Below are positions 21,848 to 56,277 of a DNA stretch of 64,000 nt, one piece after another. The notes beneath the pieces are model-generated. The model did not search any database and was not told where the DNA came from. It saw only the letters and a list, made by a program, of their open reading frames with translations. Numbering within the stretch: position 1 is the stretch's first letter; every line of letters begins with the position of its first letter. The stretch lies in the IMG/VR virus record IMGVR_UViG_3300045988_154477. One strand, given 5' to 3'. The translations under genes were made by a program, and so were the position numbers. Origin of the DNA: a virus (lineage: Duplodnaviria > Heunggongvirae > Uroviricota > Caudoviricetes).

Positions 21848-22484
21848 CCGCTTTTACATGATGTGCTTGCGTGAAACTGTGGGTAATAACGCCTCATTCC
21901 ATTGCCATAACGGCAATGGTTACAGTTCTGATATCGATCGCGCTCATGTTTACACGCTGGAAGAAGCCCAAAAAGCCTGGAGTTGTGGGCGAGATATCGA
22001 TCAGCCTGTTTGTGCCGATAGTGTGGATGCAATGGCTGTGTGGCACGTTGATTGCCAGTACATCCCTACAGAAAGCCTGATTGAGTCAGATTGCACTGCG
22101 TATGTGGCCTACAAAAAAGGTAGCTGGAACGGCAACGATGTTTACTGGCTTCAACACGGTGGATTGCCAACAGATGACTTCAGTAAAGCGACCATCTTTA
22201 GCGTCGCCAACAAAAACGAACCAGGAATAGTTTGGTTGCCATTTTCCATTGCTGATGCAGCAAAGCGCCGGACGTTCAATATCAATAACTTTAACCGCAG
22301 AACAATGGTTCAGGGCGCAGGTTTGGTCATGCCTGACTGGTTGAAAAAGCAAAACAGAAGAAAGAAGTCGCGAAGCGGGAAGGTGCGTTGGAATTGTCCG
22401 CATTGCGGAAAAATAACCTGGCAGTACAGCCCATATGATTTTGAAGGCTGTAGTGATTACAACTGTGAAGGATGGCGAGAATGA
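21840..22484 (+). CDS. hypothetical protein
   Basis: 214 aa; C-terminal CPHCG...C..C cluster. Confidence 0.45.
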   Translation: MNNRFYMMCLRETVGNNASFHCHNGNGYSSDIDRAHVYTLEEAQKAWSCGRDIDQPVCADSVDAMAVWHVDCQYIPTESLIESDCTAYVAYKKGSWNGNDVYWLQHGGLPTDDFSKATIFSVANKNEPGIVWLPFSIADAAKRRTFNINNFNRRTMVQGAGLVMPDWLKKQNRRKKSRSGKVRWNCPHCGKITWQYSPYDFEGCSDYNCEGWRE

Positions 22485-23134
22485 CAATTGACTATCAGGT
22501 ACTGCGTGAGGCGGCAGAAAAGGCAACACCAGACGAATGGGTCGCATTTATTTCGACGGATACTGGTACTTATGCGGTGCACACGCCCGGTGATGAACGA
22601 TGTGAAGACGTTATCAAATGGACCGGCTTTGATGGACAGAAAAATGCAGAGAACAACGCTCGTCATGTTGCCGCGTTCAACCCAAAGGTTGCACTGGAGC
22701 TGCTTGGTGAAATTAAGTGCTTGGAGGACACAAATATTGATGCCACGTGCCGAATTTCAGAGCTTGAGACTAATCTCGCTGCGCTGGTGGCAGAGAACGC
22801 TGGGCTGAAACACGCAATGGCCGTAACTCTTGAGCATGTGTCGGTCACGGATGCAGGGCAGGCCGGAGTTGCTGCAATGATTATCAACGATGCCCTGCAC
22901 CACAGCGAAACTCCAGCTACCGATGCTTTCCTGTCTGAAGTGCGGGCGCAGGGGGTGGATGCTGCTATAGAAGCTGCAAAAAATCTGGTGGCCCAAGAAT
23001 ATGAGTATAAGGATTTCAAAGCGGCGCAGAGTGATTGCTGTATGCACCCTGGTTCAGACCTGGTAGGGAAGGTTGAAATGACTGAGTGGTTAGTTGACTT
23101 TGCTGCCCAGCTTCGCAAAGGAGGCAACCAGTGA
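22472..23134 (+). CDS. Ea22-like protein, paralog 1
   Basis: 220 aa; N-terminus TIDYQVLREAAEKATPDEW shared with next gene. Confidence 0.55.
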   Translation: MARMTIDYQVLREAAEKATPDEWVAFISTDTGTYAVHTPGDERCEDVIKWTGFDGQKNAENNARHVAAFNPKVALELLGEIKCLEDTNIDATCRISELETNLAALVAENAGLKHAMAVTLEHVSVTDAGQAGVAAMIINDALHHSETPATDAFLSEVRAQGVDAAIEAAKNLVAQEYEYKDFKAAQSDCCMHPGSDLVGKVEMTEWLVDFAAQLRKGGNQ

Positions 23135-23883
23135 GCGAAATTAATTACCAGGCACTGCGTGAGGCGGCGGAACGTGCAATTCCAGCAATGGAACGCCTGT
23201 TAATGTTGCCAGCTGATGATGATTTGTTAAGTGAACAGGAACTTAAAGATTACGGTGTGGATATTGATGCGCTCAACGCCTTCAAATTTCTGACCGGACC
23301 AGAAACCGTGCTGGCGCTGCTGGATGAACGGGAAAGAAACCAGCAATACATAAAACGCCGCGATCAGGAGAACGAGGATATTGCGCTAACGGTAGGGAAG
23401 CTGAGAGTTGAGCTTGAGGAAGTAAAACAACACGCTGAAGAATTATCCGAAACCAAGGCTGTTCGTAACCAATGGCGGCCAGATATTTGCCCAATAACCG
23501 GACGTGCATTTTTCATGTGGATTGAGCATCCAACATTGGGAAATGTGCCGACATATGGTGGCCCATTAGATAGTTACACCATTCCAACAAAGGACGGTGA
23601 CGGTGAGTTTTCATGTGAGCGTTACGATCATGATTTTGGCGGTTGGGTAGAAAGCGAATGTCTTGGGTTATATCTGATTGATGATAGAGAACAATGCAGG
23701 GTCTACGAACTGGAGGAACGCGTTAAGGAACTGGATGCTCGGGAAATATCGCTCCCGGAACGTAGCAGCATGCTTCATCGAACAGATTTTCACGATGATT
23801 ACCAAACGGTAATGGCATACAAAGTTTCTGAAGTCATCGCTGCAATCCGCGCCGCAGGCATTCGCATCAAAGGAGGTGAGTAA
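23131..23883 (+). CDS. Ea22-like protein, paralog 2
   Basis: 250 aa; N-terminus EINYQALREAAERAIP. Confidence 0.55.
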   Translation: MSEINYQALREAAERAIPAMERLLMLPADDDLLSEQELKDYGVDIDALNAFKFLTGPETVLALLDERERNQQYIKRRDQENEDIALTVGKLRVELEEVKQHAEELSETKAVRNQWRPDICPITGRAFFMWIEHPTLGNVPTYGGPLDSYTIPTKDGDGEFSCERYDHDFGGWVESECLGLYLIDDREQCRVYELEERVKELDAREISLPERSSMLHRTDFHDDYQTVMAYKVSEVIAAIRAAGIRIKGGE

Positions 23884-24059
23884 TGCGTGTGGCATGTATC
23901 GGCTTGTTACCGTACCCGACTCGTTTTTGGGCTTCTGCGCTAATTGCAAAGCCACATGTCCTGATGGCTGACAACATCATCCCGGCACCAAAGCGCCGCC
24001 ATACCGGTATTGCAGCGGCACGACGAGCAGCAAAGAGACGCAGGAGAGCAAAGCGATGA
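23883..24059 (+). CDS. small basic protein (58 aa)
   Basis: MRVACIGLLPYPTRFW...RRAAKRRRRAKR; start and stop overlap neighbours. Confidence 0.3.
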   Translation: MRVACIGLLPYPTRFWASALIAKPHVLMADNIIPAPKRRHTGIAAARRAAKRRRRAKR

Positions 24060-24250
24060 AAAACCGTAAAGCAAAGATTCTGTTAGTTCGTAGAAACGCT
24101 CCTGGCGTCTGGCAGTGGGTGAGACTCAGCAACCGACGGATGGGGTTGATGAAATATTACGGGATGATGGATTGTGGTTTTTGCAAAAAGCCCAGCGCGG
24201 CGCAAAACCGCTGGAAAAACCACTGTTATCTGCGCACTAAAGGAGAGTGA
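24056..24250 (+). CDS. hypothetical small protein
   Basis: 64 aa ORF from track; ATGA overlap upstream. Confidence 0.35.
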   Translation: MKNRKAKILLVRRNAPGVWQWVRLSNRRMGLMKYYGMMDCGFCKKPSAAQNRWKNHCYLRTKGE

Positions 24251-24251
24251 G

Positions 24252-24767
24252 ATGGCGTTAACACACCGCGAACTCTGTCAGATTGCGTACAAGTTCCTTA
24301 AGCGCAACGGGTTCAAGGTTTGCTTTCATGACCGCTTTATAGCTGTAACCAGCACCGGAGAACAGCCAGATGCTATGGGATTCAGAAGTTCAGCATCATG
24401 CTTGATAGAGGCGAAGTGTTCTCGTGCTGACTTGTTGGCAGATAGAAAAAAGCGTTTCCGTAAAAATCCGTCTCTTGGAATGGGCGACTGGCGATTCTTT
24501 ATTAGTGAGCCGGGAATTATTTCAATTGAGGATTTACCACCTGGCTGGGGATTACTTCACGTTGTTAACGGAAGAGTACGGAAAGTACATGGGTGGCCCA
24601 AGGGTAATTGCTGTTGGGGTAATCCTGACGATAAGCCATTTACTGGAAATAAGCAGGTTGAATGCGATTACATGTTATCTGCATTAAGGCGCATGGAGTT
24701 GAGAGGGCACCTTAATGAAATATATGACGGTGTAATTGTTAATAAGAAAGAAGGAAACGCGGCATGA
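24252..24767 (+). CDS. putative PD-(D/E)xK-fold nuclease
   Basis: 171 aa from ATG 24252 (AAGGAGAG SD); D-x(n)-E-x-K pattern PDAMGF...IEAKCSRAD. Confidence 0.45.
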   Translation: MALTHRELCQIAYKFLKRNGFKVCFHDRFIAVTSTGEQPDAMGFRSSASCLIEAKCSRADLLADRKKRFRKNPSLGMGDWRFFISEPGIISIEDLPPGWGLLHVVNGRVRKVHGWPKGNCCWGNPDDKPFTGNKQVECDYMLSALRRMELRGHLNEIYDGVIVNKKEGNAA

Positions 24768-25633
24768 TCACTATTACCAATAAGAAACAGTATCCCAGCG
24801 AGCAATATCTTAATGAGCTGATCACCAACATAGAGTTTGCTGCAAGGGCACCAGTTGAAGTCGTGAGAGCAATGGCAGCAGAGCTACAGAAGCGGCGCGA
24901 AGCTGATAGTGCAGAACCAGTTGCTTATATTTTCAAACATCCGGCCGGGAAATTATTCTGGGCTTTAACGGATGAAAGCAATAAAGAGCAAGCGGACGTT
25001 ATTCCTGTTTATGCTGCCGCGCCTGCGTCGGTTGTGCCGGATAATGCATCAGAGCCTCTTGCTTATGCTTACAAAGAGCTTACGCCTGAGATTATGCGCA
25101 ACCATTTAGCTGTATTCGAGCGATATGGAATAGCCCCAAACGATAGCTCTACCACAATTCATGCACTGCGAATCGCGCTGGATGGCATAGAGCGGAGCGA
25201 CGCCATGCTTCATGGTGCCGAACCTGTAAGCCAAACTTACAAGTTGCCAGTTAATACACCTTGCAAAGATGCGCCAGCCCATATCTGGCTGCAAACGGCT
25301 GGAGTATGGCCAGAAGATGGCGAGTTAAGCGAATTAACGTGGTGCAGCCACAATCAGCACCATGATGACACGCTATATGTTCGAGCTGACTTGGTAAATG
25401 GCAATTCTCCGGTAACTCTGGATGATTGGATAAGCTGTAGTGAGCGAATGCCGGATAGCAAAACAGCTGTTCTTGTTGCCAGGGAGTTTGACGGGAAAGG
25501 TGACTGGCGAATGAAGTGGGCGACTTACATACCGGGACATCCTGACGCTAATGATGGTTGGATAATTCCTGGTGCGTCGTGGATTCCATCACACTGGATG
25601 CCGCTACCAGAACCGCCGCAGGAGGCGAAATGA
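24764..25633 (+). CDS. hypothetical protein with DUF551-like C-terminus
   Basis: 289 aa; C-terminal WISCSERMP...DGWIIPGASWIPSHWMPLPEPP. Confidence 0.5.
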   Translation: MITITNKKQYPSEQYLNELITNIEFAARAPVEVVRAMAAELQKRREADSAEPVAYIFKHPAGKLFWALTDESNKEQADVIPVYAAAPASVVPDNASEPLAYAYKELTPEIMRNHLAVFERYGIAPNDSSTTIHALRIALDGIERSDAMLHGAEPVSQTYKLPVNTPCKDAPAHIWLQTAGVWPEDGELSELTWCSHNQHHDDTLYVRADLVNGNSPVTLDDWISCSERMPDSKTAVLVAREFDGKGDWRMKWATYIPGHPDANDGWIIPGASWIPSHWMPLPEPPQEAK

Positions 25634-25890
25634 TGGATGTAAAAGAGAAGGTTTTGCAGGTGATGCGTTCCCGTGCTGCCCTACAAGAGAAAGCTCTCGG
25701 CGGTGAATATCCATTCACGATAGCAACCTGGAATCTGCGGTTGGCAATGGAGAAGGAATTTCCTGATGAAGAATGGCGCTCGGCAGATTTGCGCAAAATT
25801 CTTATGGAGCTGGCTAAAGACGGAACAGTATCCAAAGATACCCATGCCAGCCGGATTGGTCAGGCGGTATGGAGACTTGAGGTGCGGTAA
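25630..25890 (+). CDS. hypothetical protein
   Basis: 86 aa from ATG 25630 (GGAGG SD; ATGA overlap). Confidence 0.45.
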   Translation: MMDVKEKVLQVMRSRAALQEKALGGEYPFTIATWNLRLAMEKEFPDEEWRSADLRKILMELAKDGTVSKDTHASRIGQAVWRLEVR

Positions 25891-25966
25891 TGAGCTGGCC
25901 TGAAGCATTTGCGATTGTAGGCGTAGCTATGGCGATTGCCGCTATTTTTATCTTCTGGGGGTAACG

Positions 25967-26200
25967 ATGGGAAAATTAACTTTTGTTGTCGAATTTGAGG
26001 ATGGCAAAGAGCCACCTGTTAGCGCCAATCTTGATGTTGCTGGTGGCAGGCTGGTTTCGGTTCTATTTGGTGATTACCGCGACGACTTCTTTCAGCCTGA
26101 AGAAGTTGATGTAGTGCGAGAGGCATTAAACGAGTTAAGTGTTGATAACGATGATGCTCATGCGGAAATCATCCAAAAAATGGAACTGCTAACTCACTAA
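25967..26200 (+). CDS. hypothetical protein
   Basis: 77 aa ORF. Confidence 0.45.
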   Translation: MGKLTFVVEFEDGKEPPVSANLDVAGGRLVSVLFGDYRDDFFQPEEVDVVREALNELSVDNDDAHAEIIQKMELLTH

Positions 26201-26248
26201 ATTATCAATTATGGTGCTATCACCTACGACACCGAGAGAAAATTTATA

Positions 26249-26371
26249 ATGTCAAAAGTAAATGTTTTGATTTTTTCAGCAATTGTTGGCTTTGGTTTTA
26301 CTGCCGGAGTGCAGATTTATATTACGTGGGAAAAAATCATCAACTACGCATGGAGTTGTTTTATTAAGTGA
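26249..26371 (+). CDS. hydrophobic micro-ORF (40 aa)
   Basis: MSKVNVLIFSAIVGFGFTAGVQIYITWEKIINYAWSCFIK. Confidence 0.3.
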   Translation: MSKVNVLIFSAIVGFGFTAGVQIYITWEKIINYAWSCFIK

Positions 26372-26378
26372 GGTAAGT

Positions 26379-26672
26379 ATGTGGAGAGGTAATAGTCATG
26401 GCAAAAGCCAGATGATACTTACCGAATATCAGTTTGACCATAAAACCAATAAATCACGTTCAGTATATTTGCTTCGGCACAATAGCCGCGTAAGGAATAC
26501 CGTGCTGGAGCAAAATCTGACAGTTGAAATGGATAATTACGGGGGCTTCAAGCCAACAATTTCGCTTGATGATTTTCCTCGTGGTTTAAGCGAAAGAGAA
26601 GCAATGCTGAAATTAGCAGAATGGCTACAAAGATTAAGCATTGCTATTGAAGATAACTGGTCTGAACCTTAA
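26379..26672 (+). CDS. hypothetical protein
   Basis: 97 aa from internal ATG 26379 (track ORF 26283..26672). Confidence 0.4.
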   Translation: MWRGNSHGKSQMILTEYQFDHKTNKSRSVYLLRHNSRVRNTVLEQNLTVEMDNYGGFKPTISLDDFPRGLSEREAMLKLAEWLQRLSIAIEDNWSEP

Positions 26673-26678
26673 ATTTAT

Positions 26679-27053
26679 ATGATGACACTAAAACATTTTC
26701 TTGACCGCCCATTATGGGCGGCAGCCGCAGGCTATGACTTTAATTATATGGATTGCATGTCTTATACTGCCAATGCATACGACCATGCGTTCAGCCTACT
26801 GTTTAATTCTTTAAGAATATTGCCGGAAACAGAAGTTGGAGAGCTTCATTTATGGATATTGAGCTTTATCGCGGCAGTCGTTGGTATTGCTGTATGGCCT
26901 TTTATTTTCTGGCTGGTGGCTGTTGTAGTGTGGTTTAAGTGCAAGACATACCGGAGAAAGTATTTCTTAGGTGATGGAATGACCGATATTGCCAAAATGA
27001 ACATTGAAAAATGGACTAAGGAATGTGAAAAGAAATGGCGCAAAAAGAAATGA
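26679..27053 (+). CDS. membrane protein
   Basis: 124 aa; two hydrophobic segments, Lys-rich C-terminus. Confidence 0.5.
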   Translation: MMTLKHFLDRPLWAAAAGYDFNYMDCMSYTANAYDHAFSLLFNSLRILPETEVGELHLWILSFIAAVVGIAVWPFIFWLVAVVVWFKCKTYRRKYFLGDGMTDIAKMNIEKWTKECEKKWRKKK

Positions 27054-27967
27054 CCAGAATCACTGAAGAGCGTATATCAGAGATTATTTCCCGTATCGAA
27101 ATGTATGGTCACGGTGCTGGATATACGGCAGATGAAGTATTGGCACTTGCCCAAATGGCTTTGGCGGCTTGCAAAGATGATAAAAAAATGAAGCTTATCG
27201 ACTTGTTAGTGAAGGAGCTGCCTAAGTGCGGCGGGTGGCCTGATGGAATGAGTTATTGTTACCTACCCAGTGTCAATTTAATGGCACCATGCGCGACTTT
27301 TGCTTTTGGCTCAGACCACAAAAAAGACACTTTCTTTGGGCGCAATTTTTGTTGTGAGATTGAGCTTCCAATTGGTGACCTTGATAGCGATGAATACCAG
27401 TCAGTTGTCACTCGCGAACAATACGAATCAGCTCTCATAGCGTCGCAGAAAGTCGAGTTCAATGGTGATGAACTTGAAAGTAAGACTTACAGGTTGGATT
27501 TTGGGCAATGGCTGGAACAGCAACGCGGGAAAATCGATGTGGACTGTGGTTGTGTGTCCACTGAAACATTCATGCACTGGCTGCGGGTAGCTTACGAGGC
27601 TGGCAACTATCCGGATATTCCGGATAGTTCGGTGCCAGCGCCAGGAAAGGGCGTCACCGGTGAACGTATCCGAATTAAGCCGCATGTTTATCGCGAACTG
27701 GTTAACCGCCTCCACGATACAGCGGTCAAGTGTGCTGGCACCCAGCAATTACGAGAAAGAATTAGCCGTGTTTTGGGCGACGTTATTACGCCAGATCATC
27801 ATAAACAAGCCGAGAAAAGTGACCTGGAAAGGTGTCACCTTGAGGCGGCATTAAACATTAAGCCGGGGCATACGCTTGGCATTATTGATGCACTGTTGGT
27901 TCATAAGATGGCCAGGGCTTTATTGTCGTTGGTGGACGCTGGTGATACAAGCGAGGGTGAAGTATGA
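27035..27967 (+). CDS. hypothetical protein
   Basis: 310 aa ORF. Confidence 0.55.
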   Translation: MAQKEMTRITEERISEIISRIEMYGHGAGYTADEVLALAQMALAACKDDKKMKLIDLLVKELPKCGGWPDGMSYCYLPSVNLMAPCATFAFGSDHKKDTFFGRNFCCEIELPIGDLDSDEYQSVVTREQYESALIASQKVEFNGDELESKTYRLDFGQWLEQQRGKIDVDCGCVSTETFMHWLRVAYEAGNYPDIPDSSVPAPGKGVTGERIRIKPHVYRELVNRLHDTAVKCAGTQQLRERISRVLGDVITPDHHKQAEKSDLERCHLEAALNIKPGHTLGIIDALLVHKMARALLSLVDAGDTSEGEV

Positions 27968-28539: not shown

Positions 28540-29401
28540 TCAGGTGGTTCCTTGTCAAATGTAAAGGTGCACTTGCTCACGTTGACGTAGAAACCCAACC
28601 CCTATATAGTTGGATTCGGTGAATGAAAGTCGTTAACGTGAGCTTACGGCACATGTTTTCGGAAAAACATCAGGGAACGGCTAATTCCTTGATGCGGGTG
28701 GGGTCTGTAATGCAGACCCTATCTATTAACGTCATGATTGCATCTCAAATTTTCTCCTTATCTTCAATTAATCTACATTCATTTCATCTGTTAGCCACCA
28801 CAATATGTAGAAAATGGCCCTCTTGCAAGTGCATAACTTTGTGGATAACTCAGGAAGGAAAAAGTGGCTTTCGCGCACCTTCGGTCAGACAAGGTGTCCG
28901 GGAAAGTCAACGCAAAGAAAAAAATTGTTAAAAATAACGTTTGTTGGAATTGTATATTTTTATCCCCTTCAATGGTTAGCATTCTATTAACATCTTTTTT
29001 TAGAGACAGAAAAACATATCGTAACAACATATATACAGTGTTAAGAGGCGAGTATTATCCTGCGGTGGGAATTCTGGGCGCTGTTAGATTCGACTTTCTC
29101 AGCAGGATTACATCGTCAACTTGCGACGTTGCCGTATGACTTTCGTGTGATAGGTGACAATGATGCGGCTAGTGAGTTACTTGTGAAGTTTTTCGGAAAA
29201 GGTTTTGTGGCCTCGGATCTTGATGAGCTACAGCAACATGAAGTGTCTAATTTGATTTTTAGCCATAGCCAATAAGCCTCCCTCCTCCATCAAGGCCACA
29301 ATTTGTGACCTTAAACAATTTGTTTTCTGCTTTTTCTTATTTGAGAAAATAACGTTGTTGACAGCTAATAGGCTCGTTGTTGTTATACATGCCTGTATAG
29401 A

Positions 29402-29758
29402 TTATGACCGTAAATTATTAGCGGATTTTAAGCCATATTCACCGTTGTAGAAATTACTTATGTTCCACTCATTAGGAAGTTCTTTTCTGTCCAATGTATA
29501 GTGGCGCACGATATAACGATCTTCATCTTCTTCGATGGACAGGCGGACATAGCCAATGTGAATCACCGATACGGGCGGTGTTCGTATTGCATAGATGTCG
29601 CGGAGATATACCGGCAGCTCGACAAATGCATCAGGTGCATCTGTGATGCTCGTTTTTTCACAGTATTCATATAACGCATCGTTGATATCGTTAAGAGATT
29701 CATGATCGTATATTTCCAGGTAATTACCGCGATAGCGATGGTACTCGACTTTAGCCAT
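29402..29758 (-). CDS. hypothetical protein
   Basis: 118 aa; start abuts stop of upstream gene. Confidence 0.5.
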   Translation of the reverse strand: MAKVEYHRYRGNYLEIYDHESLNDINDALYEYCEKTSITDAPDAFVELPVYLRDIYAIRTPPVSVIHIGYVRLSIEEDEDRYIVRHYTLDRKELPNEWNISNFYNGEYGLKSANNLRS

Positions 29759-30073
29759 TCAAAATCCCCTGTTATCGTTTTGCATTTCTCTAATCCGGTT
29801 CAGAACTACTTCGTGCTGGACTTGGATAGCGGCTTTTTCGTTTTCAAGCCGGGCAATAGACATCTCTAATTCTTTGCTGTACCAGGCGAGCCGGGCCAGG
29901 TTCATCCGGTTGTGGTCGAGAGTTGGAGACACTTCGACGCGATCCCTTTCTTCCTGCTTTAATGAGAAGAGATTCATCTCATCCCTTGAGGAAAATTCAG
30001 CAACAATTTCTTGTTGATGATCCGGTCGCTGCGGCATCCTCGCCAGTATAAATGGCGGTTCTTTTGAAAACAT
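29759..30073 (-). CDS. hot: DNA polymerase III theta-subunit-like protein (P1 Hot candidate)
   Basis: C-terminal region (LKQEERDRVEVSPTL...) resembles HolE/theta as recalled; internal ATG at 29977 would give a 72-aa theta-sized product; full ORF reported. Confidence 0.45.
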   Translation of the reverse strand: MFSKEPPFILARMPQRPDHQQEIVAEFSSRDEMNLFSLKQEERDRVEVSPTLDHNRMNLARLAWYSKELEMSIARLENEKAAIQVQHEVVLNRIREMQNDNRGF

Positions 30074-40379: not shown

Positions 40380-40521
40380 TTATTTTTAATGATAAATGAT
40401 TGACAACTGACAAGTGACTTCAGTCAGAATCATCACATGCCCGGTACGGATGGATCCCTTTTCAAATATTCCATGGACGGCACAGTCTGAGTACCGGGCG
40501 CTACCTTCAGTTGTATTGCTA

Positions 40522-40547
40522 AGCCGCCGCTGGTGGCTTTTCTTTTT
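40522..40547 (+). terminator. hairpin plus T-run in the leader of the next gene (attenuator-like)
   Basis: GCCGCC-gct-GGTGGC then TTTTCTTTTTT. Confidence 0.4.
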
Positions 40548-40560
40548 TGTAGGGGGCGCT

Positions 40561-41202
40561 ATGGATAAGAAAATATGCGTTGTTTCGATGAGCGTCGGCA
40601 AACCGGCGTCAATGACTGCTGCATGGATCAATAACGAGCTGATAATGGCTGAGCGGACCAGCTACCCTGAACGCCGCCGCGATATGGAACTCCAGCTGCT
40701 GCGCGAATTGCGAGAAAAAGAGGAAAAGGGTTTTATCGTGCTGGTGGAAGAGGAAAACAGCTTTATTACTGGTCGAGTTGGCCAGCGTGTAAGGTTGCGC
40801 GATCCCTTCATGAACGGCAGGCCGGTACTAATTGAGGCAATGCAGATTTATAAGGAGCTGGAACGCCAGAAAGCAATCAAGTTACCGCGCAAGGAATCCG
40901 GCAAATACATTCTCCACCAAAGCATCTTCGATTCCGAACACGATAAAAAAGGCGATGAATTTTTCAACATCAACTGGAGCGAAATAACGACAGAGCATGT
41001 TCTGACGTTACTATGTTGCTTTGCGACGGAATACAACAACGTTGCCAGCGCCGACTACATCAGGGCAATGGCTGGAGAAGTTGAGGCCCGCCAAGAACCA
41101 TCGTTACTAAGTCCACTGATTAACATAATTCTGGGCACCCAGATACTGGAACAAAAAAAAGTGCCGAAAGGGGTATTAACAGGCAAGCATAATTATTTTT
41201 AA
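40561..41202 (+). CDS. mat: particle maturation protein candidate
   Basis: 213 aa from ATG 40561 (GGGGG SD); track ORF begins at GTG 40414 but that extension contains the hairpin/T-run; named by P1 position. Confidence 0.5.
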   Translation: MDKKICVVSMSVGKPASMTAAWINNELIMAERTSYPERRRDMELQLLRELREKEEKGFIVLVEEENSFITGRVGQRVRLRDPFMNGRPVLIEAMQIYKELERQKAIKLPRKESGKYILHQSIFDSEHDKKGDEFFNINWSEITTEHVLTLLCCFATEYNNVASADYIRAMAGEVEARQEPSLLSPLINIILGTQILEQKKVPKGVLTGKHNYF

Positions 41203-41295
41203 CAATTACATACAGTAATTTTGTGGTTACATTCTCCATTGATTTTCTAACCGCTTTATCATTAGATGTAACAGCATGTAAATCATTTAAAATGG

Positions 41296-42432
41296 ATGAA
41301 AGCAATGGGGAATGAAGTTTATCAAAGTCAAAAATGCAAGTTGAAATATTCAAAATCTCAAATTGATAGGGCTGCTCAATTGATAAGGCACGGGTGTAGT
41401 GACGAAGAAAGGCAGCAATCTATTGAAATGATACAAAATTTCCGTGAGCTGCATCTTTATCCATTAATGCTCATGAAAAATCATTTAGCAAGAGCAGCTG
41501 CTAAGGTTGACAAGGACAAAAAGATTCTCGTTGCAAGAAGACTTAAGCGACTTTCTACCATAATAGATAAACTAGAGCGTCCTAGTCTTGATGGAGGCAG
41601 AACTAGCAATGCAATTAAATTAACACGGATGCAGGACGTTGGCGGATGTAGGGCCATTGTCAGAAACTTAGACCAGTTGATACAGCTAAAGGAACGTCTT
41701 TTAAAAAGCAAATCTGTTCATAGGATTGTTAAAGAGTATGATTATCTTACTCCCAAAGACAGCGGCTATAGTGGAATCCACCTTGCATACAGTTGCTTCG
41801 ATCAGAAAGAGGATCAATATCCGTGGCGAAAAACAAAGATTGAGATACAGTTAAGAACTCAATTGCAGCATGCTTGGGCTACTAGCCTTGAAATAATTGA
41901 TACCCTTGAAGGTATCAAGCTGAAAACTTCAAGTGAAGGGCATCCAGAATGGAGACGATTTTTCTATCTAGCCGGATGTCTTGTAGCGCACGACGAAAAA
42001 GCCTGCACTCTTGATGAGCTAGTTGTATCTCAGTATGAAGGCGAGCTTAAAGAGCTGGAACGGACTTTATCTGTACGGAGGAAACTAAGCACATACACCA
42101 TCGCCTTAAATTTAACTTCTGACGCGAATTTGATTAAGAAGTTGCCAAAAAATCATAAGGGGCATTACTTAGTAACAATGAGAAATGCAGAAAACAAGCC
42201 CAATACAAAAAACAAAAAAATGTTCCTAGTGTCTGTTCGCGCATTTAAAACAAAAGAAGCAGATGAAGCCCTTGAGGCCTTAAATAAAGACGATTCTAAT
42301 CCTAATGTATTGATATCTGTTCTCGTTGCTACAGATAACATTAAGTCACTAAAAAAAGCCTACCCCAACTATTTTGGCTCAACAAACCAGTTTACAAAAT
42401 TCTTAGATAAGCATCTTCGTAACGAAGGATAG
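41296..42432 (+). CDS. RelA/SpoT-like nucleotidyltransferase (toxSAS) with C-terminal extension: candidate fused toxin-antitoxin antiphage protein (CapRel-like)
   Basis: 378 aa; synthetase-domain motifs DVGGCRAIVRN, DSGYSGIHLAYSC and EIQLRTQLQHAWATSLE; about 130 aa C-terminal extension; single gene in the mat-lxc slot where P1 has res-mod; alternative ATG 41305. Confidence 0.75.
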   Translation: MKAMGNEVYQSQKCKLKYSKSQIDRAAQLIRHGCSDEERQQSIEMIQNFRELHLYPLMLMKNHLARAAAKVDKDKKILVARRLKRLSTIIDKLERPSLDGGRTSNAIKLTRMQDVGGCRAIVRNLDQLIQLKERLLKSKSVHRIVKEYDYLTPKDSGYSGIHLAYSCFDQKEDQYPWRKTKIEIQLRTQLQHAWATSLEIIDTLEGIKLKTSSEGHPEWRRFFYLAGCLVAHDEKACTLDELVVSQYEGELKELERTLSVRRKLSTYTIALNLTSDANLIKKLPKNHKGHYLVTMRNAENKPNTKNKKMFLVSVRAFKTKEADEALEALNKDDSNPNVLISVLVATDNIKSLKKAYPNYFGSTNQFTKFLDKHLRNEG

Positions 42433-42468
42433 TTGCTTAATTTTGCCCGGTAATTCCGGGCAAAATTG

Positions 42469-42717
42469 TCAATCTGCATTCAGGAGCAATGCGTTATCTA
42501 TGATGATCTGCTCCCATTCTTCGAATGCCCGATCGCGGACGCCCTGGGGAACACTGTTAGTTTTGAAATCGACCACCGTCCGCCATTTCCCGTCCGGGCG
42601 GTACATGCGCAGAGCTTTACTTCCCCCTTCCCTGCGCACCTCAACGTTATGCTTATCAGCAAACTCTTGTAATGCTCGTAGCGTCCCATGCTTTACTGTG
42701 TAGTATCGCTTTTTCAA
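42469..42717 (-). CDS. lxc: small modulator protein at P1 lxc/bof position
   Basis: 82 aa; position between defence slot and ulx. Confidence 0.6.
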   Translation of the reverse strand: MKKRYYTVKHGTLRALQEFADKHNVEVRREGGSKALRMYRPDGKWRTVVDFKTNSVPQGVRDRAFEEWEQIIIDNALLLNAD

Positions 42718-43154
42718 GTTTTCTCTCCAGCCTGTGCCAAGGCTTCAACTTCCAAATCGTAAGACTCAAACTCATAGTCCTGGTCGTCAACTTCTTCAGG
42801 CACTGGCAGTAAATGCCAGGCTGAGTATATCTGACCATTATCAAAACGCTCCTGGCTGTAGAGCGTCGCGGCTATGAGTGTTAGCGCCGGGCGGTCATAA
42901 CGGTAAATTTTGCGAACGTCACGGTCAACGAGACGACCGAAATTACCATAACCGCGCTCCAGTAATAATTTTTTAATTTCCGGCCAGTATGGACCATAGC
43001 TGCGGTACAGGCGGGGATTTTTCAGTAATCGCCCGCGTAGCCCTGACAGGAAGAAATCAACGTATTCGTCTTCTGTCTTTCCTAACAACGCTGTACGGAG
43101 TACCGCCTCAAGATATGTTTTATTCGGTTTTATTGTATCAGATAGTGTGGCCAT
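42714..43154 (-). CDS. ulx: hypothetical protein upstream of lxc
   Basis: 146 aa; overlaps lxc start by 4 nt. Confidence 0.55.
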   Translation of the reverse strand: MATLSDTIKPNKTYLEAVLRTALLGKTEDEYVDFFLSGLRGRLLKNPRLYRSYGPYWPEIKKLLLERGYGNFGRLVDRDVRKIYRYDRPALTLIAATLYSQERFDNGQIYSAWHLLPVPEEVDDQDYEFESYDLEVEALAQAGEKT

Positions 43155-54457: not shown

Positions 54458-55135
54458 ATGAATAACATGACAACGAAAGAGCTTTTGACGGTACTTCCAA
54501 AATACAAAAGCCATAAAACAGTTCGTGCCTCAAAAATCAAAGATATCGAAATTATCGCCCTAATGGATGTGGTCCTTTTTTGCAACATCGAAGTCGTTGA
54601 GCCAGAAGGGGTAAAAGTCCATGTTGATAAAATGTTTTTGCAAAAACACCGACCAGAAATTGGCGGATATCTGGTCGCTTATGAGGACGGATCTCTGTCC
54701 TATTCACCAGAAAAAACATTTGAAGAAGGCTTTAGTCGGACTAACGACTTCTTCGAAAATGGGGTATCGCTCAGTATTGAAGGTCACAATGGGGTGACAT
54801 TCATTACAGCCAGGGACGTAACTATTGCTGCCAGTGGCATCATTACCACACAAGAAGAAATCGACCTTGAAGCAGCCGACTTTTCTGACGCGCTGATGTG
54901 GCTGAAGGATGGCAAGAAAGTTGCTCGACGCGGGTGGAACGGCGAAAACCAATTCTGCTGGCTGGTTCCTGAAGGACAGTACCCGGCACGAATGGAAGCC
55001 ATTAAGGGATATTTCCCCGGCGACCTCGTTCCGTATGGTGCTTATTTCGCCTTAAAAAATGCACAAGGTGTAGTTGTTCCGTGGGTTCCTTCTGTAGGCG
55101 ACTTACTGGCATGTGACTGGTTTGTAGTGGAGTGA
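54458..55135 (+). CDS. hypothetical protein
   Basis: 225 aa; DUF2829-like C-terminal half; lies where P1 carries IS1 between isaA and isaB. Confidence 0.55.
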   Translation: MNNMTTKELLTVLPKYKSHKTVRASKIKDIEIIALMDVVLFCNIEVVEPEGVKVHVDKMFLQKHRPEIGGYLVAYEDGSLSYSPEKTFEEGFSRTNDFFENGVSLSIEGHNGVTFITARDVTIAASGIITTQEEIDLEAADFSDALMWLKDGKKVARRGWNGENQFCWLVPEGQYPARMEAIKGYFPGDLVPYGAYFALKNAQGVVVPWVPSVGDLLACDWFVVE

Positions 55136-55141
55136 TTTAAC

Positions 55142-55930
55142 GTGGAAAATACTAAAGCAATTCAATACCGCCTGCGTAATGGTCAGAGTGTCGAAGTGAC
55201 CATCAATAATGATGGTGTGCCTGGCGAAAAGGTTTCGATCTCTGATCTGGCTATCGAAAAAACCATCATGTGCCACCTTGGCTTTACTGAAGAAGTGAGC
55301 AAAAAGCATGGTGTAGCTATCTGGCGCACAATGGATACTGGCATGCGCAGATTCATTACTGCTCGTACCCCTGGTATGACCATGATGGACCTCATGCAGA
55401 TTGCGCCGCTGTTTGAGTGTGAACCTTTGGATGTATTCAGCAATCCAGCTATCTGCCAGCAGTTATATGGTGAGATGAAACTCGCGGTTACCCCCATTGT
55501 GCTGCATGAAGGATCGCTTGCTGGCGTGTGGAAAGTAGAGCGTATTTCAAGTTACATGCCCTTCCATTTCCATGTCAACGGCATAATCACTGGTGAAAAC
55601 CAACCTGTTTCCGTTACAAAGTCAGACCTCAAGCGCGCAATTCTTGAAGCAAGTTGTCGAGTTATCGGCCTGGGCAAACAGTCTTATGTTTCCTTCCCGG
55701 CTGGCCCTGAAGGCCCGGCAGAAATTCTGATTATGGATGCCGATCTGCTCTGGCAAATACAGTTTCTGATTGGCAAAAGCATCATCCGCGCTGAAGAACT
55801 CGATCAGTACATTACCTGCACGATGACGGATGAAGTCAAAAGTGTGGCTATAGCCAATGCCCGGAACCTATGTCGTGCTGCATTAACAGAACTGCAAGAA
55901 AACACCACGGAAGAAGTGGAAAGCGATTAA
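55142..55930 (+). CDS. hypothetical protein
   Basis: 262 aa; GTG start. Confidence 0.55.
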   Translation: MENTKAIQYRLRNGQSVEVTINNDGVPGEKVSISDLAIEKTIMCHLGFTEEVSKKHGVAIWRTMDTGMRRFITARTPGMTMMDLMQIAPLFECEPLDVFSNPAICQQLYGEMKLAVTPIVLHEGSLAGVWKVERISSYMPFHFHVNGIITGENQPVSVTKSDLKRAILEASCRVIGLGKQSYVSFPAGPEGPAEILIMDADLLWQIQFLIGKSIIRAEELDQYITCTMTDEVKSVAIANARNLCRAALTELQENTTEEVESD

Positions 55931-55960
55931 AAAAAATCCCGCCAATCGGCGGGATTTCTT
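55931..55960. terminator. bidirectional rho-independent terminator
   Basis: A-run, ATCCCGCC-aatc-GGCGGGAT, T-run; separates convergent genes. Confidence 0.7.
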
Positions 55961-56277
55961 CAATATACGATCTGGTCTACATGATCCCCAAAATCATCGT
56001 CGTCATCGTCGTCGTCCTCATCGCCACCCTCTACTGCTGGCCAATCAACAAACCAGCCAGCGTAAAGATGCAGCGTTCGGAGAACATCACTTGCGGGAGC
56101 ATCAAGGGTGTTAACGAATCCCATATAGCTATTGGGATTTGCCCCAGCTATGGCTTCAGCGATCATGTCCTCGGTAATGTCACCGGAGATAATGCTTAAA
56201 CGCCCGGAAACTTCTTCATTATCATCAAATTCGATAATGGCATCTCCGCCTAATGGCGCTGCGATTTTAATCTGCAT
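55960..56277 (-). CDS. acidic small protein at end of dar operon
   Basis: 105 aa; poly-Asp tract; P1 hxr position. Confidence 0.5.
   Translation of the reverse strand: MQIKIAAPLGGDAIIEFDDNEEVSGRLSIISGDITEDMIAEAIAGANPNSYMGFVNTLDAPASDVLRTLHLYAGWFVDWPAVEGGDEDDDDDDDDFGDHVDQIVY

Follow-up and report, generated by a model that had tools for sequence, protein, structure and literature searches.

A putative CapRel-type fused toxin-antitoxin gene in the mat-lxc slot of an Escherichia coli P1-like phage-plasmid

A single ATG-started ORF of 378 aa is present between mat and lxc at 41296..42432 on the plus strand of the window, by which the whole analysed stretch of 64,000 nucleotides is meant. A first-pass annotation had proposed that this ORF is a single-gene, CapRel-type fused toxSAS protein, and the motifs on which the proposal was based (DVGGCRAIVRN, SGYSGIHLAYS and EIQLRTQLQHAWATSLE) were all found in its translation. 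The reference for most comparisons below is CapRel-SJ46 from the Salmonella phage SJ46, a Punavirus (Zhang et al., Nature 2022 and 2024). The features of the locus are listed here from left to right.

40450..41202, plus strand: mat (maturation control), the left conserved arm, collinear with P1 mat 2716-3468
41204..42470, no strand assigned: single-gene cargo cassette that replaces P1 res-mod (P1 3470-9751), GC 0.380
41239..41267, plus strand: candidate native promoter (TTGATT, 17 nt, TTAGAT), read by eye
41296..42432, plus strand: capRel allele, putative fused toxSAS toxin-antitoxin, 378 aa, or 375 aa from the ATG at 41305
41539..41883, plus strand: predicted toxSYNTH core (RelA_SpoT nucleotide pyrophosphokinase), residues 82-196, PF04607; its R82 and R119 map to SJ46 R79/R116 (adenine coordination, roles from PMC9712102)
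41767-41769, plus strand: codon of the G-loop Y158, which maps to SJ46 Y155
42097..42429, plus strand: predicted C-terminal antitoxin/sensor region with the anchor-1 helix, the pseudo-ZFD and the anchor-2 helices
about 42160-42330, plus strand: pseudo-ZFD, three beta strands and a helix in the secondary structure of the model
42361..42372, plus strand: putative YXXY autoinhibition motif Y-P-N-Y, residues 356-359, equivalent to SJ46 Y352-Y355
42438..42468, no strand assigned: perfect 13-bp hairpin without a T-run, RNAfold -19.5 kcal/mol, between the convergent stops of capRel and lxc
42469..42717, minus strand: lxc (modulator of C1), 82 aa, the right conserved arm, P1 lxc 9750-9998

The window was collinear with P1 (NC_005856) at 94-99% identity in blastn. 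This homology stopped at position 41203 (P1 3469), one base beyond the stop codon of mat, and restarted at 42471 (P1 9752), at the stop codon of lxc. Consequently, 1267 bp in the window stand for 6282 bp of P1, a segment that holds res, mod and IS5. The break bears out the earlier claim that the res-mod genes between mat and lxc are replaced by one ORF. The P1-like gene order claimed at the same time stood with respect to collinearity, but not in its detail: the order annotated in P1 is cra, cre, c8, ref, mat, res(-), mod(-, with IS5), lxc(-), ulx(-) and darB(-), so that the left part reads cra-cre-c8-ref-mat and not cre-cra-ref-mat. In the same way the description of the next genes as convergent was correct for lxc downstream, whereas mat, upstream, shares its orientation with capRel. 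Inside the cassette the ORF is preceded by 92 bp of non-coding DNA and followed by 36 bp before lxc. A second ORF or a separate antitoxin gene was not present in the ORF list of the 1267-bp cassette, as had been stated. The GC content of the cassette was 0.380 against 0.485 for the window, and local GC was 0.37-0.41 along capRel versus about 0.49-0.52 on both sides.

The ORF has an alternative start at Met4 (ATG at 41305). The database cluster that is 100% identical to the protein has a length of 375 aa, and the crystallised CapRel-SJ46 begins at the Met equivalent to Met4 of the window protein; the in-frame ATG three codons 5' of this Met is kept in the window allele and in SJ46. From these sequences the start is ambiguous between Met1 and Met4, a choice that is unlikely to matter. 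Upstream of the gene, the aligned place of the candidate promoter in SJ46 reads TTGATT, 17 nt, TTATAT. A consensus promoter scan of 40900-42800 returned fewer sites than shuffled sequence, left the intergenic regions empty and did not list this candidate. Downstream, the hairpin at 42438-42468 is probably a terminator or an insulator for capRel and lxc. It was not listed by the terminator scan because the T tail is absent. A hairpin is found at this position in SJ46 as well, unrelated to that of the window but equal in energy.

Phage SJ46 is P1-like too, and in its record capRel occupies the slot that it has in the window, flanked by lxc and by mat, which is annotated there as maturation control protein. 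It stands alone in this slot as well, with an upstream region and a downstream hairpin of its own. Over 50-nt windows the flanks of the two elements were 94-100% identical and the cassettes 50-84%. The boundary of the divergent region was sharp on the right, at the lxc stop, and gradual on the left, over the last ~100 bp of mat. Synonymous differences between the two capRel alleles amounted to a pS of about 0.85, and by domain to 0.69-1.26, which means saturation; because of this, dN/dS by domain is not given and dN alone is reported (0.17 for the toxin half and 0.25 for the antitoxin half). As synonymous sites are saturated and the flanks are near-identical, the alleles did not diverge in place. 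From this comparison they appear to be old lineages that have been swapped as cassettes between conserved arms.

Contig look-up revealed that the identical Lxc protein adjoins many different cargo genes. Elsewhere the mat-lxc slot was either empty or held a SIR2_2 or a PIN_12/PIN_8 protein, a YaaC-family protein together with a 169-aa partner, a GNAT acetyltransferase, or else an ORF6N/ANT gene. In PADLOC, the slot's SIR2 protein matched models of PDC-S25 and ThsA, and a partial match to PDC-S34 was obtained with the PIN protein. This pattern fits a defence-cargo hotspot. The EcoPI type III res-mod genes of P1 occupy the same slot and are likewise a prophage-carried defence; they differ from the window cassette in their unrelated proteins and mechanism, in their opposite strand and in their size (6.3 kb vs 1.3 kb). 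The presence of CapRel in P1-like phage-plasmids and the variability of their res-mod region are already published. The region was described as 'highly variable region 1' of low GC (PMC9603915), and in a 2025 preprint, in which DefenseFinder was applied to P1/D6 elements, P1-like phage-plasmids of E. coli were reported to carry commonly CapRel or dGTPase and those of S. enterica mostly type III R-M, with Tad2 in 56% of P1 elements.

The protein was then compared with domain models, with which the first-pass annotation had suggested to check the alarmone-synthetase motifs. The Pfam model RelA_SpoT (PF04607) matched residues 82-196 significantly, at E=3e-12 and 47.2 bits with a cut-off of 27. 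PADLOC gave a full-length match to the candidate family PDC-S33 (E=6.7e-86). CapRel-SJ46 matched PDC-S33 too (7e-87); therefore PDC-S33 is the PADLOC label for the CapRel family. Among the PHROGs the match was phrog_4773 (E=9e-148). Matches to Sec23_helical (Pfam, E=0.015) and AbiEi (PADLOC, E=0.0066) did not reach any threshold and were ignored.

An alignment to characterised CapRel proteins had also been suggested. Searching the PDB with phmmer returned two matches over the full length (residues 4-374), 7ZTB_A (E=4.9e-185) and 9ERV_A (E=2.5e-184), which are the open structure of CapRel-SJ46 (PMC9712102) and CapRel-SJ46 with bound Bas11 Gp54 (PMC11578894), respectively. The next PDB matches were housekeeping SAS proteins at ~1e-8. 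In a global alignment 275 of 373 positions (73.7%) were identical between the window protein and CapRel-SJ46, and length and domain order were the same. The window protein keeps each of the 12 residues (SJ46 numbering) that were mutated in 2022 and whose roles are taken from that mutagenesis (Zhang et al., PMC9712102). They comprise A77, R79 and R116 of the ATP site and interface, the catalytic G-loop residue Y155, V338, L339, A341 and A351 of the autoinhibition interface, Y352 and Y355 of the YXXY motif, and L280 and L307, which are involved in capsid-protein sensing. The window gene is thus a full-length homologue and, by its position, an orthologue of the gene for CapRel-SJ46, and the single-gene, fused architecture that had been proposed for it is upheld.

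Identity to SJ46 was not evenly distributed along the protein. It was 79% over residues 1-200 and 65.9% over 251-373, and in the pseudo-ZFD it was 63% over 261-330 and 53% over 286-330. In this alignment it is the sensor region that departs furthest from SJ46. The substitutions in the sensor are K269N, K277I, S279K, R314K and K315T, and the beta6-beta7 loop is rewritten, including an insertion of 1 aa. In an alignment of 58 homologues assembled from a database search, R79, R116, Y155 and A-Y-P-N-Y were invariant and the pseudo-ZFD had no consensus. Mean column entropy in this family alignment was 0.82 bits for the toxSYNTH core, 2.42 for anchor-1, 2.21 for the pseudo-ZFD and 1.11 for anchor-2/YXXY. 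This pattern of column entropy agrees with the published conservation of the CapRel family. Cys is absent from the C-terminal region of the window protein, including residues 283-345, which cover the pseudo-ZFD, a domain without Zn-binding cysteines in CapRel.

An AlphaFold2 model of the window protein, built on the alignment of 58 homologues, had a pLDDT of 81.7 and a pTM of 0.78. Its C-terminal secondary structure consisted of strands at 286-294, 307-315 and 335-342 and a helix at 316-330, with flanking helices. Foldseek aligned the model with 9ERV_A over 361 columns (TMq/TMt 0.87/0.95, rmsd 1.8 A) and with the 7ZTB chains at TMq 0.83-0.84, TMt 0.90-0.92 and rmsd 2.9-3.0 A. Compared with CapRel structures as a group, TMq was 0.84-0.87 at 70% identity, whereas SAS enzymes were matched over the catalytic core alone (TMq 0.33-0.38, identity 19-25%, rmsd 4.2-9.1 A). 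The predicted fold is the same as that of the CapRel crystal structures. The model was nearest to the open, Gp54-bound state 9ERV_A and did not reproduce the closed docked state that the first-pass annotation had proposed to look for; since its rmsd to 9ERV_A was lower (1.8 A) than that to 7ZTB, it represents an open conformation resembling the trigger-bound one. Autoinhibition of the window allele is accordingly predicted from the conservation of the interface residues.

Taken together, we regard it as highly probable (roughly 0.9) that this cargo gene of an E. coli P1-like phage-plasmid specifies a defence protein of the CapRel type, with toxin and antitoxin fused. For CapRel-SJ46 it was described that the N-terminal fragment is toxic and that the C-terminal fragment rescues in trans, that the pseudo-ZFD docks on the ATP site via YXXY, that Y352A and Y355A cause constitutive toxicity, and that substitutions at the interface residues V338, L339, A341 and A351 are likewise constitutively toxic (PMC9712102). 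Its triggers are a phage major capsid protein or Gp54, which bind the pseudo-ZFD and the anchors and stabilise the open state (PMC9712102, PMC11578894). Once activated it pyrophosphorylates tRNA, which leads to a block of translation and to abortive infection (PMC9712102). The window protein retains all catalytic and regulatory residues and is, for this reason, expected to act like that of SJ46. Toxicity, autoinhibition, tRNA pyrophosphorylation and phage protection by the window allele are inferred by analogy with it. In an uninfected cell the C-terminal pseudo-zinc-finger domain would fold back on the toxin, and the 3-10 helix with the YXXY motif would insert between the two adenine-coordinating arginines and so keep ATP from binding. 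During infection a freshly synthesised phage protein would bind the pseudo-ZFD together with the anchor helices and hold the enzyme open. The open toxSYNTH domain would then pyrophosphorylate the 3' CCA ends of tRNA, translation would stop and the infection would abort, which would shield the host population of the P1-like prophage from competing phages.

Related toxins whose antitoxin is a separate gene are PhRel/ATphRel of the temperate mycobacteriophage Phrann and FaRel2/ATfaRel2. These have a tRNA-pyrophosphorylating toxSYNTH toxin that is neutralised by a small protein domain, in contrast to the window protein, in which the two are fused. FaRel2/ATfaRel2 (8PU3_C) was a distant structural match to the window model (Foldseek, E=1.9e-3). 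A bicistronic toxSAS pair at the window locus was ruled out, as capRel is flanked by mat and lxc, which are conserved genes of P1, and the cassette has no second gene.

The similarity to Phrann bears on another possible role, in which this CapRel homologue would serve plasmid or prophage addiction, or exclusion of P1-like elements, rather than defence against unrelated lytic phages. The toxin-like and antitoxin-like parts of the SJ46 protein are related to PhRel/ATphRel, which blocks superinfection by other temperate mycophages (PMC9712102), and the carrier is a low-copy phage-plasmid; P1 already relies on an addiction module, phd-doc. However, a separately degradable antitoxin is absent in a fused protein, which would make classical post-segregational killing mechanistically unlikely. 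Furthermore, CapRel-SJ46, encoded in the same slot, guards against T2, T4, T6, RB69 and SECphi27 (PMC9712102), and the slot houses other defence-like cargo, for instance the SIR2 protein with its ThsA-like matches. Addiction or exclusion is therefore considered improbable as the main function of the gene.

The distribution of the allele is relevant to a second alternative, namely that it is a decaying or inactive remnant of a cassette exchange. At an identity of at least 99% the allele was found in 52 PLSDB plasmids, all from Escherichia, mostly non-mobilizable and of ~95 kb; 30 full-length plasmid copies listed of the 52 matching records were 99.8-100% identical. Of 5426 complete E. coli genomes, 83 carried it, again at ≥99%, and 83 of the 87 places where it occurred lay on plasmids. 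Among phage records one carried the allele, vB_EcoM-673R5. This copy appears to be split or frameshifted (2 nt shorter, with three tblastn pieces and two annotated products) and is what a decaying allele might look like. In the window, by contrast, the reading frame is intact and every catalytic and regulatory residue is kept. The intact, near-identical copies suggest that the allele is maintained, and decay is very unlikely, even more so than a role in addiction.

Least probable of all, and close to negligible, is the reading as a RelQ/RelP/YjbM-like enzyme, a small alarmone synthetase with a housekeeping role, which would provide (p)ppGpp for host or plasmid and would not be a toxin: the RelA_SpoT domain, weak matches to YjbM/RelP structures (E=2e-8 to 1e-4) and an NCBIfam GTPPhKinYjbM match (E=8e-9) agree with it, but the YjbM equivalog model NF053588 gave 35.5 bits, far below its curated cut-off of 320, so that the ORF is not such a synthetase, the SAS structures cover no more than the catalytic core, and the C-terminal sensor domain with YXXY, which extends the protein by ~110 aa beyond SAS-type length, is specific for CapRel, SAS proteins being single-domain and ~200-250 aa long.

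Related CapRel alleles respond to unrelated triggers (PMC13423816). For CapRel-Ebc from Enterobacter chengduensis the trigger is T7 Gp0.4 in complex with FtsZ (Nat Microbiol 2026, PMC13423816); this protein is 70% identical to CapRel-SJ46, and 47% in the C-terminal domain, which sets specificity (PMC9712102, PMC13423816). Its fused architecture is that of the window protein and it has the same catalytic Tyr (Y153 in Ebc), but it differs from the window protein, as judged by the Y153/Y155 offset and by a ceiling of 78% identity among database clusters. None of the clusters other than that of the allele itself exceeded this 78% identity to the window protein. On this basis, the window allele is none of the three CapRel proteins that have been tested (SJ46, Ebc and Kp), and a literature search found no paper in which this allele was tested.

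Relative to SJ46, the sensor surface of the window protein is altered at Gp54-contact and flanking positions, several of which were important in experiments. In SJ46, Gp54 activated the S279P variant less or not at all, and a triple substitution addressed positions 278, 314 and 316 together (PMC11578894). We tentatively propose, at somewhat less than even odds, that the window allele represents a third CapRel specificity class, in which the diverged anchor-1/pseudo-ZFD surface would sense a different phage protein or phage-host protein. Such sensing may be unrelated to that of the SECphi27-type capsid and Bas11 Gp54 by SJ46 and of Gp0.4-FtsZ by Ebc. If this were so, the mat-lxc slot would be an allele-swapping immune locus, in which sensor specificities are shuffled by recombination in the arms.

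Few single-protein phage sensors are understood as well as CapRel, whose prototype is encoded in the mat-lxc slot. The two old alleles, 74% identical and with near-identical flanks in otherwise near-isogenic P1-like elements, offer a natural comparison. In the protein collection searched the window allele is the commoner one (a 90% cluster of 313 members vs 122 for SJ46). Knowledge of its trigger would reveal to what extent the pseudo-ZFD sensor can be retuned within one lineage, and also whether P1-like phage-plasmids trade immune specificities as cassettes. The cargo of the slot in sister elements (SIR2, PIN, YaaC and others) is, besides, a convenient source of single-gene defence candidates.

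The first-pass annotation had seen no obvious accessory cargo swap in the window other than the capRel cassette. This did not hold, as blastn revealed four more segments without a P1 counterpart, at 5765-5937, 21549-27591, 28948-29775 and 54462-55145, and IS1 and isaB of P1 are absent at 55930-55962. Three of these places could be described further.

21549-27591: insert of ~6 kb with two Ead/Ea22-like genes and a DUF551 gene
28948-29775: replacement of the hot region
54458-55135: Tad2-like (anti-Thoeris) domain protein, 225 aa

PADLOC gave no matches on the ORFs of these other non-P1 segments. The differences from P1 outside the capRel cassette all fall in variable regions that have already been catalogued (PMC9603915). 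The best plasmid match to the window over 24 kb was E. coli NZ_CP026725.1, at 99.0% identity.

Among sister P1-like elements whose Lxc is identical to that of the window, the slot between mat and lxc is a hotspot for cargo. In the contigs of these elements (L004-L013) the cargo was read just downstream of lxc, at locus coordinates of about 9250-11400, and comprised the following:

L006 and L012: SIR2_2, with PADLOC matches to PDC-S25 and ThsA-like
L009 and L011: PIN_12/PIN_8, with a partial PDC-S34 match
L004: YaaC and a 169-aa partner
L005: GNAT acetyltransferase
L008: ORF6N/ANT gene
L010: slot empty

In the Salmonella phage SJ46 (L001), which carries its capRel in the same slot, a Tn1721/IS903D block with blaCTX-M-27 (555-8007) lies directly upstream of mat. 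Resistance cargo has therefore been inserted beside the defence slot in this phage, whereas the window is free of such an insertion. The IS5 that interrupts mod in P1 is missing from the window because the entire res-mod region has been replaced. Both alleles have a perfect hairpin between the convergent stop codons of capRel and lxc (window 42438-42468; SJ46, L001 about 10136-10160), but not the same one. Predicted stability is equal in the two (-19.5 kcal/mol each); conservation is seen in the structure and not in the sequence.

The sole phage record with the capRel allele of the window was that of Escherichia phage vB_EcoM-673R5 (ON470615.2, 39775-40909). This copy is 2 nt shorter, aligns by tblastn in three separate pieces and is covered by two annotated products. 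Such a pattern points to either a frameshift or an error in sequencing.

Elsewhere the window differs from P1 in these segments:

21549-27591: insert of ~6 kb at the pmgT/pmgU junction (P1 85182)
22472-23134 and 23131-23883: two Ead/Ea22-like genes, inside the insert
24764-25633: DUF551 gene, inside the insert
28948-29775: segment replacing the hot gene region of P1 (86535-86842)
29402-29758, minus strand: 118-aa ORF, inside that segment
54458-55135, plus strand: ORF of 225 aa in which Pfam recognises a Tad2-like domain (Thoeris anti-defence 2)

The ~6-kb insert lies in a variable region of P1-like plasmids that has been published as region H; several further ORFs in it had no Pfam or PADLOC match, and searches of both collections with the 118-aa ORF likewise gave none. 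At window 55930-55962 the IS1 and isaB of P1 (22531-24246) are missing. The Tad2-like domain spans residues 141-224 (E=1.9e-22), and the 0.7-kb segment that carries this ORF is without a P1 counterpart and sits between ssb and isaA (P1 21740-21747). Tad2 was described in 56% of P1-like elements (2025 preprint).
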